From NCBI GenBank assembly GCA_038238015.1, contig JBBRYA010000003.1:14462-78461 (forward strand): a DNA stretch of 64,000 nucleotides, written 5' to 3'. Within the stretch, counting starts at the first letter, position 1. The number at the start of each line of letters is the position of its first letter. Made by a program: the position numbers and the translations under genes. The stretch is from Solirubrobacterales bacterium. Its GTDB lineage: Bacteria > Actinomycetota > Thermoleophilia > Solirubrobacterales > Solirubrobacteraceae. Below, in pieces: positions 2,888 to 53,136 of the stretch. Under the pieces are notes generated by a model, which was not told where the DNA came from, ran no database searches, and was given only the letters and a program-made list of their open reading frames with translations.

Positions 2888-5296
2888 ATGCCCACCTCAT
2901 TGGTAACGGGTGGAGCGGGATTCCTCGGGTCGCATCTCTGCGACGAGTTGCTGCGGCGCGGCCACCGCGTCGTCTGCGTCGACAACTTCGAGACCGGCTC
3001 CCTCGCCAACATCGAGCACATCCGCGCGCCGGAGTTCGTCCACCTCCACAAGGACATCATCCACCCGTTCTTCGTCGATGAGCCGGTGAACTTCGTCTAC
3101 CACTTCGCCTCTCCCGCGTCGCCGATCGACTACCTGCGTCTGCCGCTGCACACGCTCAAGGTCGGCTCCTACGGCACCCACAACGCGCTCGGGCTGGCAA
3201 AGCAGCACCGCGCCCGCTTCCTCACCGCCTCGACCTCGGAGGTCTACGGCGACCCGCAGGTGCACCCGCAGCCCGAGTCCTACTGGGGCCACGTGAACCC
3301 GATCGGCCCGCGCGGCGTCTACGACGAGGCCAAGCGCTACGCCGAGGCCCTGGTCATGGCGTATCACCGCCAGCAGGGGCTGGACACGGGGATCGTGCGG
3401 ATCTTCAACTCGATCCTCGCCGACGAGCAGGTGCTCTACGACGACGGTCGCGAGCTGCGTCGCGAGAAGGTCTCAGAGCTTGCCGGGCGCCTGGCCGCCC
3501 GGGCAGTGGCCGCCAGCTACGTGCCCAGCAACGCTGCAGGGACACAGTTGATGGACGCGGCTGTCGAAGCGTCCGAATATCCGCTCGAGGGGGTCACCGT
3601 TCCCGCCTTCGGCGAGGGCGGTCACATGGTGGCGGCGCCCGCCTCAGCGCTGATCGCGCACCCCACCGAGGAGCGCTGCTTCGAGGTGAGCACGCGCTAC
3701 GGCCGGTCGATCCGCGTGACCGGTCACCACTCGATCTTCGTCGAGGGCGCCGACGGCGAGCCGGTCGCCAAGCCGGTTGAGGACCTCGAGGTCGGCGATC
3801 ACGTCGCGATCCCGCGGCGGATCGAGGTCCCTGAGCGCGACCGCACGGTAGTGAGCATGATCGAGGTCTGGCGCTGGGCGGAGGAGGACCCGTGGGACCT
3901 CTGCGCCGAAGCCCCGGGACTGGGGGAGCTGGCGTGGCAGCGGCGCTACGACCTGTTCGGGCTGCTGGCCTCGCAGCGCCGCAACAACGGTCCGAACTGG
4001 CGCAACGGGGCGTGGACGAAGATCATCCGCATGCGTCAGACCGGGCGCGTGCCCCTGCCGGCGCTCTGGCGCATCGGCGAACCGCTCCCCGACGACGCCT
4101 GGGTGCGCAGGCGCGGCACCGGACGCAGCGTGCCGATGCCGGCGCGCATCCACCTGAGCGACAAGCTGCTCTGGCTGCTCGGCCTCTGGGTCGCCGAGGG
4201 CTCGTGGCACGAGAGCTCGCACGATTCGTACATCACGCTGAGCGCCGAGGAGCCGCTGCTGTGGCGCGCGGCCGACGTCATTCGCGAGGAACTGGGCCTC
4301 CACTGCGTGTTCGCTCCGGCGAGCGGGGCACGCTCGGCGTCGCTCTTCGTGCACTCGAAGCTGCTGCTGAAGCTGATGGCCTTCCTCGGCTTCGAAGAGG
4401 GCGGCAAGCGGATTCCCGGCTGGATCCTCGGGCTGCCGCTCAGCCGCCTGAAGTGGTTCATCGAGGGCTACCGCGAGGGCGACGGCGTGCATTCCGGCGC
4501 GTGGTTCAGGGAGGGCAAGAAGCACCACTTCGCGACGGTCCACGAGGAGCTCAAAGACGACCTCGTCGTCGCGCTGGCCCGCTTCGGGCTCGTGGCCTCC
4601 ATAGGCCGCTACAGCTCCAAGATCCGCCGCAAGACCGGGGATCGGGGCTATCCCTTCTGGAGGGTGTCGGTCTCGAGCCTCTCCCCGTGGAGCCCGCTGG
4701 AGTGGGACGCGGGCGTCGAGCAGCGGCTCAATGCGCGAACGACCGGCGATCTCGCCTGGGCAATGATCACCGGCATCCAGGAGATTCCCGCAACGAACCT
4801 CGTCTACGACTTCTCCGTCCCAGGGTACGAGAACTTTGTGGCGGGAGCTTGTGTCAATTGTCATAATACCTACGGCCCGAGGATGCGCCCGCATGACGGC
4901 CGCGCGATCCCGACCTTCATGCGCCAGGCGCTCCAGGACCGGCCGATCACGATCTTCGGCGACGGCTCCCAGACGCGCTCCTTCTGCTTCGTCAGCGATC
5001 TGATCGACGGGATCATCGGGCTCGCCGAGTCCGGCCACCATCATCCGGTGAACATCGGCAACCCCAACGAGTTCACGCTGCTCGAACTGGCCGACGCCGT
5101 CATAGAGGTCACCGGCTCGCGCTCGGAGGTCGTGCACGAGGCGCTGCCGACCGATGATCCCCAGGTACGCCAGCCCGACATCTCGCTCGCCCGCGAGATC
5201 CTGGGCTGGGAGCCGAAGGTCGAGCTTCGCGAAGGCCTGCAGACGACGCTCGAGCTCTCCGGAGTCGAGGCGCTCACTGGTGCCGGCCTGCGCTGA
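2888..5296 (+). CDS. UDP-glucuronate decarboxylase (UDP-xylose synthase-type extended SDR) interrupted by an intein
   Basis: Host motifs are [10 protein letters not shown] (Rossmann), STSEVYG and YDEAKR (catalytic YxxxK). The conserved ...VRIFN / TYGPRM... motif is split by a 486-aa insert. The joined exteins total 316 aa, the normal size for this family. Confidence 0.9.
3410..4867 (+). mobile_element. intein (486 aa) with LAGLIDADG homing-endonuclease domain, inside the UXS gene
   Basis: It starts Ser-Ile-Leu-Ala-Asp directly after extein ...IFN. Block B is [11 protein letters not shown]. The two LAGLIDADG motifs are [10 protein letters not shown] and [10 protein letters not shown]. The C-terminal [15 protein letters not shown]...VNCHN is followed by +1 Thr of TYGPRM. 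Confidence 0.85.
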
Positions 5297-47886: not shown

Positions 47887-48893
47887 ATGCTCCGCCGCTT
47901 CCTCGCCGCCCTTGCCGCCACGCTTCTCCTGGCCGCCCCAGTCGGCGCCCTCTCCTCCCCCAAGAAGGGCATCTGGGGTCCCGCGCGCGTTGGCGGCGTC
48001 TCGCAGTTCCCGATCTACAAGGAGCTCGGGGCCCGAGTCTACAACTCGAGCCTGAACTGGAGCGCGATTGCGCCGAAGCAGCCGGCCGATGCGGCGGCCG
48101 AGGCGCAGAAGTCGGCGATCAAGGTCGCGCTGCTGGTCACGCAGTCGCCGCCGTGGGCGAACGGGGGCAAGCTGAGCCAGTGGGTTCCGCGGGCGGCTGA
48201 CTGGGCGGACTTTCTGGTCGCGGCGGCTCGGCGCTACCCGACGGTGCACGACTGGATCATGTGGGGGGAGCCGACGCGGGCGGCGAACTTCCAGCCGATC
48301 CCGGCGACGCATCCTTCGCGGCCGCTTCCGGCCAAGGGGAAGCGCACGGTCCAGCTCTACGCGGGGCTGCTCGACGCGGGCTACGGCGCGCGCAAGGGCG
48401 TCAGCTCGCGCAACGTCGTGATCGGCGGCAACAGCTTCACCGGCGGGGACATCTCGCCCTTCAACTGGATTCGCTACATGCGGCTGCCCAACGGCAAGCG
48501 CCCGCGGATGGACCTCTACGGCCACAACCCGTTCACGCTGCGCCGCCCGCGGCTGTCGGACCCGAGCGTCAGCGCGGCTACCGGACTTCTCCGACCTCGA
48601 TGCGCTGGCGGGCTGGCTGGATCGCTACTTCGGCAAGGACCCGCGCGGGAAGCCGATGCGGATCTGGCTTGGGGAGTTCGTGCTGCCGACCGACCATCGC
48701 AAACTTCGAGTTCAACTTCTACGTCAGCCGCAGGGCCCAGGCCTCGTGGCTGACCGACGCGCTGAAGATCACGCGGCGCTGGTCGCGGATCGCCGCACTG
48801 AACTGGCTTGGGCTCTACGACGACGCGCGGGGCCCCCGGGGGGCGACGAGGTCACCGCGGGCTGATCGACGCCCAGGGCCGGCGCAAGCCGTC
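47887..48893 (+). pseudogene. frameshifted, 3'-truncated paralog of the secreted GH-A-like hydrolase at 19871..20938
   Basis: An intact signal peptide and IMWGEPT lie in one frame. DFSDLDALAGWLDRYFGKDPRGKPMRIWLGEFVLPTDH lies in a second frame. ANFEFNFYVSRRAQASWLTDAL...[10 protein letters not shown] lies in a third, and [12 protein letters not shown] in yet another. The last ~10 codons are missing. Confidence 0.75.
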
Positions 48894-48896
48894 CTT

Positions 48897-48974
48897 AAGG
48901 CGGCTCATCAGCGATCCGCCTCCGATCCCGGTGAGGCCGACGAAGCTGCCGACGCCGAGGCCGAACATGATCAC
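48897..48974 (-). pseudogene. about 26-codon N-terminal remnant of a TauE/SafE-like permease gene
   Basis: [23 protein letters not shown] is the typical first helix plus GxGGG motif of this family. It then loses similarity at the junction with the hydrolase pseudogene. This is a very short fragment. Confidence 0.3.
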
Positions 48975-48993
48975 GAGCGGGTCCAGCGGGTGG

Positions 48994-49242
48994 ATGCTCG
49001 CCGCCGACGAACTAAGATCGCCCCCCAGCGCGGACGTCGCCCTCACCAGCGAGCCTGCGGCGCTGCCGCACGAGCTGTCGCACCTGCGGACGCTCGAGGC
49101 CGAGGCAATCCACAGCATCCGCGAGGTCGCCGCCGAGCTCGAGCGCCCGCTGTTCTCCGGCGGCAAGGACTCGATCGTTCTCCTGCACCTGCGCGCAAGG
49201 CCTTCCGGCCCGGAGGGCTTCCGTTCCCGCTGATGCACGTCT
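48994..49242 (+). pseudogene. cysD: N-terminal remnant of sulfate adenylyltransferase subunit 2 (cysD), frameshifted and truncated
   Basis: [41 protein letters not shown], then after a frameshift [17 protein letters not shown] (PAPS-reductase-like SGGKDS motif). Similarity ends at about 49242. Confidence 0.6.
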
Positions 49243-49377: not shown

Positions 49378-51300
49378 CTATGTGGCCAGCAGCTTCTGGT
49401 CCGCATCCACCATCAGCCGGATCAGCTCCTCGAAGGAAACCCTCGGCGTCCACCCCAGCTCCCGCTCAGCCTTCGCCGCATCCCCCACCAGCAGGTCAAC
49501 CTCCGCCGGCCGCTTGAACGCGTCGTCGATCCGCACGTACGGCTCCCACTCGAGCCCCACATGGTCGAACGCCACTTCCACGCACCGCCGGACCGTGTTG
49601 GTCTCGCCAGTCGCGATCACGTAATCCTGCGGCGTGTCCTGCTGGAGCATCATCCACATCGCCTCGACGTAGTCGAGCGCGTAGCCCCAGTCGCGCTTGG
49701 CATCGAGATTGCCTAGAGCAAGCGAGTCGCGCAGCCCCAGCTTGATGGCCGCCGCATGCCAGGAGATCTTGCGGGTCACGAACTCCAGCCCGCGGCGGGG
49801 AGAGTTGTGAACGACGAGCCGGCCGATGCCGGCGCAGAAGAGGCCGCTCTCAGTCTCGACGTCAAAGACCCATTCGGAGCGTTCAGGGGCCACCTCGACA
49901 ACGCGCCGCACCTCGGCCGGGTCGCGGCGCAGATGCTGGCCCTTGGCACCGACACGGACAGCGCTTGGGAGATTGAGCAGGTAGTAGCAGCGGTCTCCAC
50001 GGTGCTCCGCATAGACCGACGGCGTCCGATCGCGCAGTCCATATAGCCAGCACAGGCCTTGAGCGAGCACGGGCGAGTTGGTCTTCACGGCTTCGCCGTT
50101 GCCGCGCTTGAGCCCGTCGCCCGCGTAGTAGCCCTTGAGGAAGGCATCCTGCGCCTCTGCGGAGGCGTTGAGCACGAGTGGCGGCACCTGCTTGAGGCCA
50201 GTGCGGGTGTACAGCTGCTGCCTCAACCAGCTGTGCAGGGGCCCGGCGCCGCCCATGAAGGTCTTCGACCAGAGGTTGGCCACGAGCATCTGCAGGCCTG
50301 GGTCGTTGTTGGTGAACTGGATGGCGTGGTCGCCGATGTAGCCGTCTGCGGCCAACAGACCGAGCAGCTCGCCGAGCTCAGGAGTAACCGCGGTCCACTC
50401 GCCGGTGCCCGGCCAGTCGAGTGACATGCCGAGCTTGTCGCCGTCTGTGACCTCGTCGGCTCGCAGGGGGTCGTGTTCCTCGTCGATCATCGTGTGGTGA
50501 GCGGTGGTCTGAACGATGCCGCCGCGGGCTTCGATGGAGAGCAGCCGGTGGTCGGGGTCGGTCACTCGCCGACGGGTCGCCGTGATCGCCTTCAGCTCGG
50601 TCCAGTTTGCGCCGTCCCAGATCTCCAGAAGGAGGTCAGCGGGTAGGGCATGGCTCTGAACGCTTCTTCCCTTGCGAAGGAGCGGTATCAGGTCAGCCGG
50701 TGTGACGACCTGCACCAAGCCCTTGCGGCGCACCATCAACGGGGTCGCCTCCGCCACGCACTCGTGGTTGAAGAGGATCCCGGAGCACAGCGCCATGTCG
50801 TAGGACTCGCGGTAGTTGACCGTGATGTGGTGGCCGTAGACCTTCGCGACGCCATAGGGCGAGCGCGGGTAGAAGGGCGTGTCCTCGTTCTGGGGCGTCT
50901 GGCGGACCTTGCCGAACATCTCGCTCGATGACGCCTGGTAGAAGCGCGCCTCCGGGGCGGCTTCGCGCACCGCCTCGAGCAGCCGCGTCACGCCGACCCC
51001 GGTGAACTCGGCGGTCAGCGTGGGCTGCACCCACGAGGCGGCGACGAAGGACATCGCGGCGAGGTTGTAGATCTCGTCGGGCTTGGCGGCGCGCAGCGTG
51101 TCGACGAGCGAGCGCTGGTCGAGCAGGTCGCCCTGGTGCAGGGTCACGCGCTCGCGGATCTGCTCGATGCGCTCGAACTTCTCCGTCGAGGAGCGGCGGA
51201 CCATGCCGTGGACCTCGTAGCCCTTCTCGAGCAGGAGCTCGGCCAGGTAGGAGCCGTCCTGGCCGGTGATCCCGGTGATCAGTGCGTGTTTGGGCGACAT
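49378..51300 (-). CDS. gmd: GDP-mannose 4,6-dehydratase interrupted by an intein
   Basis: Host motifs are ALITGITGQDGSYLAELLL, QASSSEMFG and SPYGVAKVY. GILFNHE / SPRRG...FVTRKI is split by a 319-aa insert. The exteins total 321 aa. Confidence 0.9.
   Translation of the reverse strand: MSPKHALITGITGQDGSYLAELLLEKGYEVHGMVRRSSTEKFERIEQIRERVTLHQGDLLDQRSLVDTLRAAKPDEIYNLAAMSFVAASWVQPTLTAEFTGVGVTRLLEAVREAAPEARFYQASSSEMFGKVRQTPQNEDTPFYPRSPYGVAKVYGHHITVNYRESYDMALCSGILFNHECVAEATPLMVRRKGLVQVVTPADLIPLLRKGRSVQSHALPADLLLEIWDGANWTELKAITATRRRVTDPDHRLLSIEARGGIVQTTAHHTMIDEEHDPLRADEVTDGDKLGMSLDWPGTGEWTAVTPELGELLGLLAADGYIGDHAIQFTNNDPGLQMLVANLWSKTFMGGAGPLHSWLRQQLYTRTGLKQVPPLVLNASAEAQDAFLKGYYAGDGLKRGNGEAVKTNSPVLAQGLCWLYGLRDRTPSVYAEHRGDRCYYLLNLPSAVRVGAKGQHLRRDPAEVRRVVEVAPERSEWVFDVETESGLFCAGIGRLVVHNSPRRGLEFVTRKISWHAAAIKLGLRDSLALGNLDAKRDWGYALDYVEAMWMMLQQDTPQDYVIATGETNTVRRCVEVAFDHVGLEWEPYVRIDDAFKRPAEVDLLVGDAAKAERELGWTPRVSFEELIRLMVDADQKLLAT
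49804..50760 (-). mobile_element. intein (319 aa) with LAGLIDADG homing-endonuclease motifs, inside gmd
   Basis: It starts with Cys (CVAEATPLMV) right after ...FNHE. Block B is VQTTAHHTMI. The LAGLIDADG motifs are LLGLLAADGYIG and FLKGYYAGDGL. It ends VFDVETESGLFCAGIGRLVVHN followed by +1 Ser. Confidence 0.85.
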
Positions 51301-51449
51301 TCCCGTATCGCATCACAACGGCAGGCGCGACTGCGTGCACAGCGTCAGGCGCGGTCGAAGAACTCCTCCACCTTTCCTGAAAGGCGCGCGCGTCGATTTA
51401 CGGGCTCCCTCCAATGCGACGTCGGATCTGACATATACACTTGCACTTC

Positions 51450-51779
51450 ATGACGCCCGGATCCCTGCTTCGTGACGCGCGTGCGCGCCACCGGCTCTCG
51501 CAGCAGGCCCTCGCCGGCAGGGCTCGCACGACGCAGAAGCAGGTCAGCCGGATCGAGAACGACGAGATCTCGCCGTCCGTGCGCACACTCGAGCGGCTGT
51601 TGGCGGTGATGGGCGAGCGGCTCGAGATCCGGGCGGTGGCCGGTCCTCGCGACAACCGCTCAGACGCCGAGGTGCTGGCCGACGCGCAGGCGCTGACGGG
51701 CTCCGAGCGGGTGGCCGCGGCCGCAGCGCTCAGCCATACGCTGACTGCTGTCGCGGCCGGCCGCGTCCACCGCACGTGA
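51450..51779 (+). CDS. XRE-family helix-turn-helix protein (antitoxin-like)
   Basis: LRDARARHRLSQQALAGRARTTQKQVSRIENDEISPSVRTLERLL is a canonical HTH_3. The stop overlaps the next gene's GTG (GTGA). The ORF-track TTG at 51441 is also possible. Confidence 0.8.
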   Translation: MTPGSLLRDARARHRLSQQALAGRARTTQKQVSRIENDEISPSVRTLERLLAVMGERLEIRAVAGPRDNRSDAEVLADAQALTGSERVAAAAALSHTLTAVAAGRVHRT

Positions 51780-52297
51780 CCGGCGAGGATGACCTCCAGG
51801 TTCCGCCTCTCCAGGCCGAGGCGTTGCTGGCGACGCTGATCGAGCATCGTGTCGAGTTCGTCGTGATAGGTGGCTTTGCGCTGGCCGCCCACGGAGTGGT
51901 GCGCGGCACGAAAGACGTTGACATTTTTCCGGCACCGGAGCCGGAGAACCGCGCCCGGCTTGGGATCGCGCTGCAGGCGCTTCGTGCCGAGGTCCTGCTC
52001 GCCGACGACTTCGACCCTGCCGAGCTGGGCATCGCGCCGGACGCCGACGGGCTGGCCCTCGGCGGAAACTGGGTGCTGCGTACCCGCCTCGGGCGACTCG
52101 ACGTCATGCAGGATGTGGCGGGAGCGGCCGACTACAACTCGCTCGCGGCGGGAGCGGTGGAGCACGAGGTCGCGGGCGCGGGCCCGGTGAAGTTCGCAGG
52201 CCTCGACGATCTCATCGCCATGAAGGTGGCGGCCGGCCGACCTCAGGACGAGATCGACGTCGTCAGCCTCGAGCGCGCGCGCCGCCCTCGAGAATAA
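51776..52297 (+). CDS. nucleotidyltransferase-fold protein (candidate toxin partner of the HTH protein)
   Basis: FVVIGGFALAAHGVVRGTKDVDIF matches the GG..A...G..R.T.D.D minimal nucleotidyltransferase signature. The 173-aa protein is translationally coupled to the HTH gene. Confidence 0.6.
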   Translation: MTGEDDLQVPPLQAEALLATLIEHRVEFVVIGGFALAAHGVVRGTKDVDIFPAPEPENRARLGIALQALRAEVLLADDFDPAELGIAPDADGLALGGNWVLRTRLGRLDVMQDVAGAADYNSLAAGAVEHEVAGAGPVKFAGLDDLIAMKVAAGRPQDEIDVVSLERARRPRE

Positions 52298-52302
52298 GGC
52301 AG

Positions 52303-53136
52303 CTACAGCCGGCCGCGCAGGTGGCGCGCGTACTGCCGCGCGAAGCCGCTCACGAAGCGCGGGTTGTAGAGCAGGTAGCGCTTCCACAGCCGCCGCGGCT
52401 CCTGGGAGAGGCGGAACGCCCACTCCAGCCCGAGGCGCTGCAGCCAGTTCGGGGCCTGGCGCTTGATTCCGGCGTGGAAGTCGAACGCGGCGCCGACGCC
52501 GACGAGCACGGGGACCTCGAGGCGCTCGCGCATCTCGAACATCCACTTCTCCTGCAGCGGGACGCCGAGGCCGACCCAGACGACGTCGGCCCCGGAGGCG
52601 TTGATCTCGGCGGCGATCGCGTCGGCCTCCGCAGGCTCGAGGCGCCGGAAGGGCGCGAAGCGGGTGCCGACGATGCGCAGGCCCGGGTAGCGGCGCGGGA
52701 GGGCCTCGGCGAGCGTGGCGAGCGTGCTCTCGCGGCCGCCGTAGAGGTAGAAGCGCTGGCCGGTGCGGGCGGCGCGCTCGCAGGCGCGCGCCATCAGGTC
52801 GGGCCCGTAGACGCGCTCGTTGAGGCTGTGGCCGAGCAGGTTCATACCCCACACGAGCGGCTGGCCGTCCGGGACCGTGAAGTCGGCGGCGAGCACCGCG
52901 GCGCGCAGCTCGGGGTCCTCCTGGCAGGCCATCACGGTGTGCACGGCGGCGACGCAGACGTACCCGCGGGCCCGGCGCTCGGCGGTCGCCGCGATCCAGT
53001 CGAGCGTGCGCTCGTAGTCGGTCAGCGCGAGCGGGATGCCCAGGATCTCCACGGTGGCCACGGTCGGGAGGGCGAGGGCTTCGGAGGGCGTGGAGAGGGC
53101 GGCCATGACGGGTGTTGCAACGAGGGCCGAAGCCAT
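52303..53136 (-). CDS. WecB/TagA/CpsF-family glycosyltransferase (GT26)
   Basis: ...TVPDGQPLVWG..., ...FYLYGG..., VWVGLGVPLQEKW and ...GVGAAFDFHAG...RAP.WLQRLGLEW.FRL..EP.R are all family hallmarks. Confidence 0.9.
   Translation of the reverse strand: MASALVATPVMAALSTPSEALALPTVATVEILGIPLALTDYERTLDWIAATAERRARGYVCVAAVHTVMACQEDPELRAAVLAADFTVPDGQPLVWGMNLLGHSLNERVYGPDLMARACERAARTGQRFYLYGGRESTLATLAEALPRRYPGLRIVGTRFAPFRRLEPAEADAIAAEINASGADVVWVGLGVPLQEKWMFEMRERLEVPVLVGVGAAFDFHAGIKRQAPNWLQRLGLEWAFRLSQEPRRLWKRYLLYNPRFVSGFARQYARHLRGRL

Follow-up and report, generated by a model that had tools for sequence, protein, structure and literature searches.

A 64,000-nucleotide stretch of contig JBBRYA010000003.1 from a Solirubrobacterales bacterium (the window, meaning the whole stretch that was analyzed) encodes a GDP-mannose 4,6-dehydratase (GMD; gene gmd) whose reading frame is interrupted by 319 codons. 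This locus raises the question of whether the insert is an intein that can splice itself out of the enzyme, and whether the homing endonuclease that it carries can still work. Our analyses strongly support the insert as a canonical intein of class 1 (Hint superfamily) with a nested two-motif LAGLIDADG endonuclease domain, judging from sequence homology and a structural model. We consider it quite likely that the intein is competent for splicing within the NHE/S substrate/cofactor loop of GMD (the slash marks the insertion point here and below) and that its endonuclease is weakened or dead. An original prediction, made from the nucleotide sequence, had proposed an intein in GMD, and this proposal was borne out by the precision of the insertion, the class-1 residues, profile homology, the fold, a family of inserts at the same site and the existence of intein-free alleles.

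An insert in the active-site loop of GMD

The host gene and its parts are as follows.

49378..51300, minus strand: gmd precursor open reading frame (ORF), 640 codons plus stop; GMD with the intein inside
50761..51300, minus strand: N-extein, GMD residues 1-180, ending in ...CSGILFNHE; aligns to residues 15-~190 of 1rpn
49804..50760, minus strand: intein of 319 amino acids (aa), precursor residues 181-499, Cys1 to Asn319; starts CVAEATPL...
49381..49803, minus strand: C-extein, residues 181-321 of mature GMD; begins with Ser+1 (codon 49801..49803), SPRRGLEFVTRK...

The insert had been predicted at 49804..50760, with a length of 319 aa, splitting GILFNHE/SPRRG, and this location proved exact to the base on the minus-strand ORF. 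In the precursor, GILFNHE forms residues 174-180 and SPRRG starts from residue 500, with the insert (residues 181-499) between them. The precursor matches Pfam GDP_Man_Dehyd in two stretches (E 8e-130) and, with the insert in place, passes the curated NCBIfam GMD equivalog TIGR01472 (426.4 bits vs a cut-off of 415). After in silico splicing, GMD matched Pseudomonas aeruginosa GMD (1rpn) with an E-value of 7.5e-126 and a gap-free junction (SGILFNHESPRRG vs SGILFNHESPLRG). The spliced 321-aa protein was also gap-free across the junction when aligned with 2z1m.

In a search of 5.8 billion proteins, the best 120 matches to the spliced GMD were all intein-free GMDs, which showed 83-89% identity over 97-100% of the length and measured 314-333 aa. 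The total of 321 aa for the exteins is therefore usual for GMD, as originally claimed. An extein alignment had been suggested as a check. In this alignment the spliced GMD was colinear with 1rpn, 2z1m and seven intein-free alleles; the latter were 84-88% identical to the exteins over the full length and carried CSGILFNHES, P or E, and RRGLEFVTRK as one unbroken string. The exteins showed no truncation or frameshift against these alleles, and this degree of full-length identity indicates that the host gene is under constraint. The insertion loop had also been described as invariant. This description holds for NHES, which was constant in all GMDs compared, and fails for the later residues of the 12-residue string: the position after the Ser is P or E in close relatives, and 1rpn and 2z1m have SPLRG. 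The loop belongs to the active-site region and is unbroken in all solved GMDs aligned, so the precursor is expected to be inactive until it is spliced.

Third-position GC content was 83% in the intein, lower than in the C-extein (88%) and the N-extein (97%), as would be expected if the intein were of foreign origin or under weaker selection on codons.

Homology, fold and splicing residues of the insert

LAGLIDADG_3 was the only relevant Pfam match of the insert (23.7 bits vs a cut-off of 22.5), and a single-sequence phmmer search of the PDB gave two marginal matches, both to inteins (E 0.44 and 1.9). Since single-sequence searches were not decisive, we built a family profile from 29 insert sequences taken from database homologues, and supplied the same alignment to AlphaFold2. 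The profile search, another check that had been proposed, matched solved inteins with E-values from 4e-14 to 8e-5, namely TliVMA (7qsu, 4.2e-14; 7qss, 3.7e-13), PI-PkoII (2.4e-6) and PhoVMA (8.1e-5). The alignment of the profile with these structures spans block B, both LAGLIDADG motifs and the C-terminal block G.

The AlphaFold2 model obtained from the 29-sequence alignment had a pLDDT of 90.6 and a pTM of 0.91, whereas prediction from the single sequence gave an unusable model (pLDDT 34.8). In a Foldseek search of the PDB with the former model, ranks 1-7 were all endonuclease-bearing inteins (E 2e-17 to 1e-6): TliVMA twice, PhoVMA, PI-PkoII, PI-PfuI and PI-SceI twice (7qsu, 7qss, 7qst, 2cw7, 1dq3 and PI-SceI). 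These were followed by mini-inteins (7oec, 6vgv, 4o1r and 2in8) and the monomeric LAGLIDADG enzyme I-DmoI. Similarity to Hint domains, on which the original prediction depended, is thus present both in the profile homology and in the structural matches to whole and mini-inteins.

The intein contains the following parts.

50758..50760, minus strand: Cys1 codon, block A nucleophile for the N-S acyl shift, equal to precursor Cys181
50494..50505, minus strand: block B TAHH, intein T86-H89, read on the minus strand as ACCGCTCACCAC
50425..50760, minus strand: N-terminal part of the Hint (splicing) domain, intein 1-112, all-beta; AlphaFold2 strands within 8-100; Foldseek mini-inteins 7oec, 6vgv and 4o1r
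49924..50424, minus strand: LAGLIDADG homing-endonuclease domain, intein 113-279, approximate boundaries from the model; LAGLIDADG_3 and I-DmoI (Foldseek) matches
50338..50370, minus strand: LAGLIDADG motif 1, ELLGLLAADGY, intein 131-141, catalytic Asp139
50110..50142, minus strand: LAGLIDADG motif 2, FLKGYYAGDGL, intein 207-217, catalytic Asp215
49804..49923, minus strand: remaining, C-terminal part of Hint (intein 280-319), with VFDVETESG as block F (D300) and VVHN as block G (H318, N319)

The Cys start, the TAHH block, the two LAGLIDADG motifs, the VVHN end and the following Ser were all found where they had been placed, and helices 127-139 and 201-215 of the model are the two LAGLIDADG helices. 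The window copy holds the complete class-1 set (C1, T86, H89, D300, H318, N319 and S+1). When it was compared with 71 parsed genome homologues (72 copies in total), T86, H89, D215, D300 and N319 were invariant (72/72). Position 139 is D in 70 and E in two copies, and position 1 is C in 61/72 and S in 11/72. The terminal Asn is preceded by His in 50 of the 72 copies, by Ser in 21 and by Lys in one, and Ser occupies the +1 position in the window and in every one of the 71 parsed genome loci.

The residues at the two splice sites co-vary. All 11 inteins that start with Ser (L020, L021, L025, L027 and others) end in Ser-Asn instead of His-Asn; ten Cys1 copies also end in Ser-Asn and one in Lys-Asn. 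These variants suggest a sub-clade with altered C-terminal cleavage chemistry.

Two related kinds of element were considered and rejected. Bacterial intein-like (BIL) and Hedgehog-type Hint domains occur in variable, often secreted hosts, typically lack a +1 nucleophile or a homing endonuclease, and cleave rather than splice. The GMD insert has a highly conserved cytoplasmic host, conserved Ser+1 and terminal Asn, and an endonuclease domain. A mini-intein was rejected on anatomy.

Relatives of the intein and empty sites

The database search with the insert matched 350 proteins, and the best 120 of these were all GMDs with an insert at the same site (48-71% identity). At least 206 genomes encode a relative of the GMD intein when one genome per species is counted for 185,579 species. 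The best 80 of the 206 are mainly metagenome-assembled genomes (MAGs) of Solirubrobacterales/Thermoleophilia, with single MAGs labelled Chloroflexia, Myxococcales and Armatimonas. All 80 fetched loci have one open frame through the N-extein, the intein and the C-extein, and the intein was parsed in 71 of them. Among 1.84 billion cluster representatives, the family profile retrieved 3754 relatives at E <= 1e-3; nine of ten scanned representatives of about 670-770 aa were GMDs. The nearest non-GMD hosts sampled were family-B DNA polymerases, a group-1 glycosyltransferase and a subtilase.

Intein-free alleles occur close to the window copy. The closest intein-free relative of the exteins (P0121, 88% identity) has a WecG-family glycosyltransferase gene upstream of gmd, as in the window, and its empty-site DNA differs from the spliced junction of the window at 5/60 nucleotides. 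Of the alleles that bear the intein, the nearest to the window exteins is L001 at 84%, so that the intein-free allele is the closer of the two. Such patchy occurrence among close relatives fits the expected product of a mobile element, as far as these sequences can tell. The empty gmd site, a candidate endonuclease target, was reconstructed as CTGTGCTCCGGGATCCTCTTCAACCACGAG/TCTCCCCGCCGCGGGCTGGAGTTCGTGACC, ...GGGATCCTCTTCAACCACGAG/TCTCCCCGCCGCGGGCTGGAG...

A look-up of the exact precursor protein in public assemblies gave no record. Public gene calls for intein-bearing gmd often start internally, even on megabase contigs, either at MREV... (P0002, P0015 and P0055) or inside the intein (P0031, P0099, P0112 and P0116). 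In the window, GAGGCG stands before the matching Val codon (GTG); it resembles a ribosome-binding site, by which gene callers may be misled. We considered whether the shortened database proteins were pseudogenes. In each of the 80 genome loci an open frame runs through both exteins, so this was rejected and the shortened proteins are attributed to gene-calling errors.

Two database GMDs contain two inteins (P0263, 1087 aa; P0347, 1043 aa). Besides NHE/S, the second site lies in the catalytic Ser/Thr-x-Glu motif (YQAS/S...HN/SSEMFG in P0263 and YNAG/C...GN/SSEEFG in P0347). The sequence of P0347 is rich in Asn, Lys and Ile and comes from a very AT-rich organism, so the intein site is occupied far outside Thermoleophilia.

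A deletion in the endonuclease domain

The window copy differs from its relatives by a deletion in the endonuclease domain.

50248..50253, minus strand: deletion scar, private in-frame loss of 23 codons, FMG/GAGP between intein G170 and G171

In homologues this place is filled by TTRAWEGTSGF....VGQLALT. After LWSKTFMG the window reads GAGP, and the intein of L001 has about 23 extra residues (TTRAWEGTSGFSHGAVVGQLALT). The segment is kept in 51/51 aligned database homologues and 70/71 genome homologues, and the columns lost with it include an S and a G that are each 99% conserved and a V that is 92% conserved. The 71 parsed genome copies measure 337-350 aa (342 aa in 49 of them) except for one of 316 aa, while the window intein measures 319 aa. 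At the DNA level, the 69 bp absent from the window are flanked by GGC codons in L001, which fits a slippage-type deletion.

The LAGLIDADG core has an alpha-beta-beta-alpha-beta-beta-alpha order, in which beta3-beta4 contributes one half of the sheet that binds DNA at the respective half-site. In the AlphaFold2 model, the first LAGLIDADG half consists of helix 127-139, two short strands and helix 154-167, which is followed directly by helix 175-183. In the second half, strands 248-254 and 257-263 follow the corresponding helix. The internal pseudo-symmetry of the two halves therefore identifies the lost segment as the beta3-beta4 hairpin of the first half; the complete core is not found in both halves, as the first lacks these two strands. 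The profile-aligned counterpart of the hairpin lies around residues 196-217 of TliVMA.

Substitutions are also found in the neighbourhood. The window copy has R157Q and R159L in the adjacent helix, where Arg is 96% and 94% conserved, respectively, and also E181Q. It departs from 13 columns of at least 90% conservation (family median, 4), and nine of the 13 departures are in the endonuclease domain.

The 316-aa intein (L013; QHBV01000227.1, a Solirubrobacterales MAG) has a 26-residue deletion of nearly the same hairpin with other boundaries (FLARA/SVIPW). It is just 60% identical to the window intein. The loss of the hairpin is thus independent in the two copies, and repeated.

Splicing, homing and alternative explanations

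Judging from the conserved residues and the established class-1 intein pathway, splicing would proceed as follows. The 640-aa precursor would be translated first. An N-S acyl shift at Glu180-Cys181, in which Cys181 is Cys1 of the intein and Thr86 and His89 of block B assist, would give a thioester. The hydroxyl of Ser500 (+1) would then attack this thioester and take over the N-extein as a branched ester. Asn499 would cyclize to a succinimide with the assistance of His498, and the 319-aa intein would be freed. An O-N shift would finally join Glu180 to the Ser, yielding active 321-aa GMD. In homing, the endonuclease would cut intein-free gmd alleles at NHE/S, and repair would copy the intein in; the patchy distribution among close relatives fits such a spread. 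In the window copy splicing is probably intact, since the complete set of residues is retained. Its endonuclease seems to be weakened or inactive, although we hold this view less firmly; it draws on the loss of the hairpin and of the two arginines. The copy most likely stands early in the decay phase of the homing cycle, as its sequence suggests. The original prediction of a compact, intact and possibly active homing element can thus be kept in part: the intein is compact, and owes this to the 23-residue loss. An intact and active element is hard to reconcile with the missing hairpin, R157 and R159, even though the catalytic Asp residues are kept.

Several observations weigh against decay of the endonuclease. 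Both LAGLIDADG helices end in their catalytic Asp (D139 and D215), and the model predicts the fold of the remaining endonuclease domain with confidence. Private substitutions on the window lineage amount to 18% in the endonuclease domain and 20% in the Hint domain, which is no excess. The independent loss in L013, in which the frame is still open, raises the possibility that the hairpin is not essential and can be dispensed with. The deletion in the window could in principle be an assembly artefact. The family behaves as if mobile, being patchy in close relatives and present in MAGs assigned to other phyla. These observations would suit a fully active mobile intein, in which splicing and the homing endonuclease both work and the 23-residue hairpin is dispensable. 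We nevertheless regard a fully active element as unlikely, because the deleted segment is retained almost throughout the family and holds 99%-conserved residues, and because established knowledge of LAGLIDADG enzymes assigns beta3-beta4 half of the DNA-binding sheet of one half-site. The two conserved arginines in the neighbouring helix are lost too. An in-frame deletion, in addition, is the expected survivor if selection acts on splicing and not on cleavage.

Other observations weigh against splicing itself. A Pfam/NCBIfam scan of the window insert reported no match at E <= 1 to Intein_splicing (PF14890), Hint or the intein N-/C-terminal models, and PF14890 reached E < 0.01 in 3/29 family members, all under its threshold. 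Block F of the GMD intein reads ETESG, whereas the aligned TliVMA intein has a histidine there (ETHNF). A splicing domain undetected by curated hidden Markov models (HMMs) would be in line with an insert that does not splice, leaving gmd non-functional or remaining in GMD as a permanent domain. However, the HMM miss is a matter of detection and not of mechanism. The window copy has the residues for all four splicing steps, and its full-length exteins are 84-88% identical to intein-free GMDs. A permanent insert in this contiguous loop would probably destroy the enzyme, yet the frame is kept open in 80/80 loci. A non-splicing insert is accordingly very hard to credit. A domesticated intein that serves as a post-translational switch is also improbable: conditional splicing (for example, through redox state via Cys1, or temperature) would gate the supply of GDP-fucose/GDP-deoxyhexose. 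In an extended form, to which we assign the same low probability, the GMD intein and the intein of a UXS-like enzyme in the window (described below) would both be retained to gate sugar-nucleotide supply, and the decayed endonuclease would be a step towards domestication. A switch would make sense of an intein in an active-site loop, where the precursor should be inactive, and of the presence of an intein in each of two paralogous sugar-nucleotide enzymes within the same 64 kb, two residues apart in a homologous loop. The intein has also been retained long and widely with a conserved length, and conditional splicing is documented for other inteins. However, selfish inteins normally insert in conserved active-site loops, many close relatives manage without the intein, and the GMD and UXS-like inteins are unrelated beyond the LAGLIDADG motif; plain parasitism would fit the same features as well as regulation would. 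We therefore retain a splicing-competent intein with an endonuclease in decay as the preferred explanation.

Comparison with known inteins

In architecture and inferred mechanism, the GMD intein is an ordinary endonuclease-bearing intein, and its closest solved relatives are archaeal VMA inteins. TliVMA and PhoVMA (7qsu, 7qss and 7qst), which are hosted by the V-ATPase A subunit, gave the best match in the profile search (E 4e-14) and in the fold search (E 2e-17; TM-score 0.65 normalized to the query). As in the GMD intein, a LAGLIDADG domain with two motifs divides their Hint domain, block B is TxxH and the terminal residues are HN. However, the host and the insertion site are different, and identity is about 15-18%. 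PI-PkoII (2cw7), PI-PfuI (1dq3) and PI-SceI (1vde/1lws) share the overall fold (Foldseek E 6.5e-13, 4e-12 and 2.7e-7, respectively). For these three inteins, both splicing and cleavage of intein-free alleles have been demonstrated experimentally, whereas for the GMD intein we infer them. They are also larger (454-537 aa), have extra DNA-recognition regions, and reside in DNA polymerase, ribonucleotide reductase and VMA1. The nearest sampled relatives outside GMD are the metagenomic inteins of family-B DNA polymerases (P0279, P0288, P0340 and P0356; E 1e-55 to 6e-34). These often occur in multi-intein proteins and, unlike the window intein, are recognized by Pfam Intein_splicing and Hom_end.

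Less ordinary are the host, which is an extended short-chain dehydrogenase/reductase (SDR) acting on sugar nucleotides, the failure of curated HMMs to find the family, and its apparent absence from the literature. Inteins are known mainly from proteins of replication, repair and energy metabolism. InBase is said to list Trichodesmium 'Ndse' inteins in a nucleoside-diphosphate-sugar epimerase. The GMD intein leaves the general understanding of inteins unchanged; it represents a large family in a sugar-nucleotide enzyme, which counts at least 206 species-representative genomes and, among proteins from metagenomes, thousands of members. As curated intein HMMs largely miss the GMD inteins, such genes are annotated solely as GMD, often with a wrong internal start codon. 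Genomes of soil Thermoleophilia could be re-annotated accordingly. We found no description of an intein in GMD or any SDR in the searchable literature, including a 2016 survey and a 2020 review, which is absence of evidence only. To the extent that the insertion site is also without a description, its natural variants (Cys1/His-Asn, Cys1/Ser-Asn and Ser1/Ser-Asn) form a comparative set for splicing chemistry. The family further offers candidate LAGLIDADG nucleases with a defined target. The hairpin deletions in the window and in L013 are a natural experiment on the decay of a homing endonuclease while splicing is kept.

Second intein and neighbouring genes

The window is a polysaccharide-biosynthesis region with genes for glycosyltransferases, Wzy-type proteins and flippases. 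It includes the second intein, which lies in a UXS-like SDR enzyme of 802 aa (2888..5296, plus strand) that is split as RIFN/S...CHN/TYGPRM by 486 aa. This intein is detected by Pfam Intein_splicing (63 bits) and also by LAGLIDADG_3. Both inteins reside in paralogous extended-SDR sugar-nucleotide enzymes and have LAGLIDADG motifs, and both insertions fall in the homologous loop, with the UXS-like one two residues farther upstream (FN/TY vs FNHE/SP). However, the UXS-like intein has Ser1 and Thr+1, whereas the 319-aa GMD intein has Cys1 and Ser+1. Transfer between the paralogues was rejected because BLASTP matched only the LAGLIDADG motif (E 0.004 over 33 residues). By this sequence comparison, the two inteins are independent invasions.

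Convergent with the 3′ end of gmd is an N-terminal remnant of cysD (sulfate adenylyltransferase subunit 2; ~49063..49200, plus strand) inside an ORF at 48808..49233. About 46 residues match residues 21-68 of 1zun (E 2.3e-9) and a stop codon follows shortly after; the gene appears to have been truncated to this fragment. An HTH_3/XRE-type regulator and a DUF6036 nucleotidyltransferase are encoded with a stop/start overlap (51441..52297, plus strand) in the spacer that separates gmd from the wecG-family gene (52303..53136, minus strand). This cassette resembles a toxin-antitoxin pair. In a syntenic relative without the intein (L081), the equivalent interval is occupied by a VapB/PIN pair, which indicates that this spacer is a variable islet.

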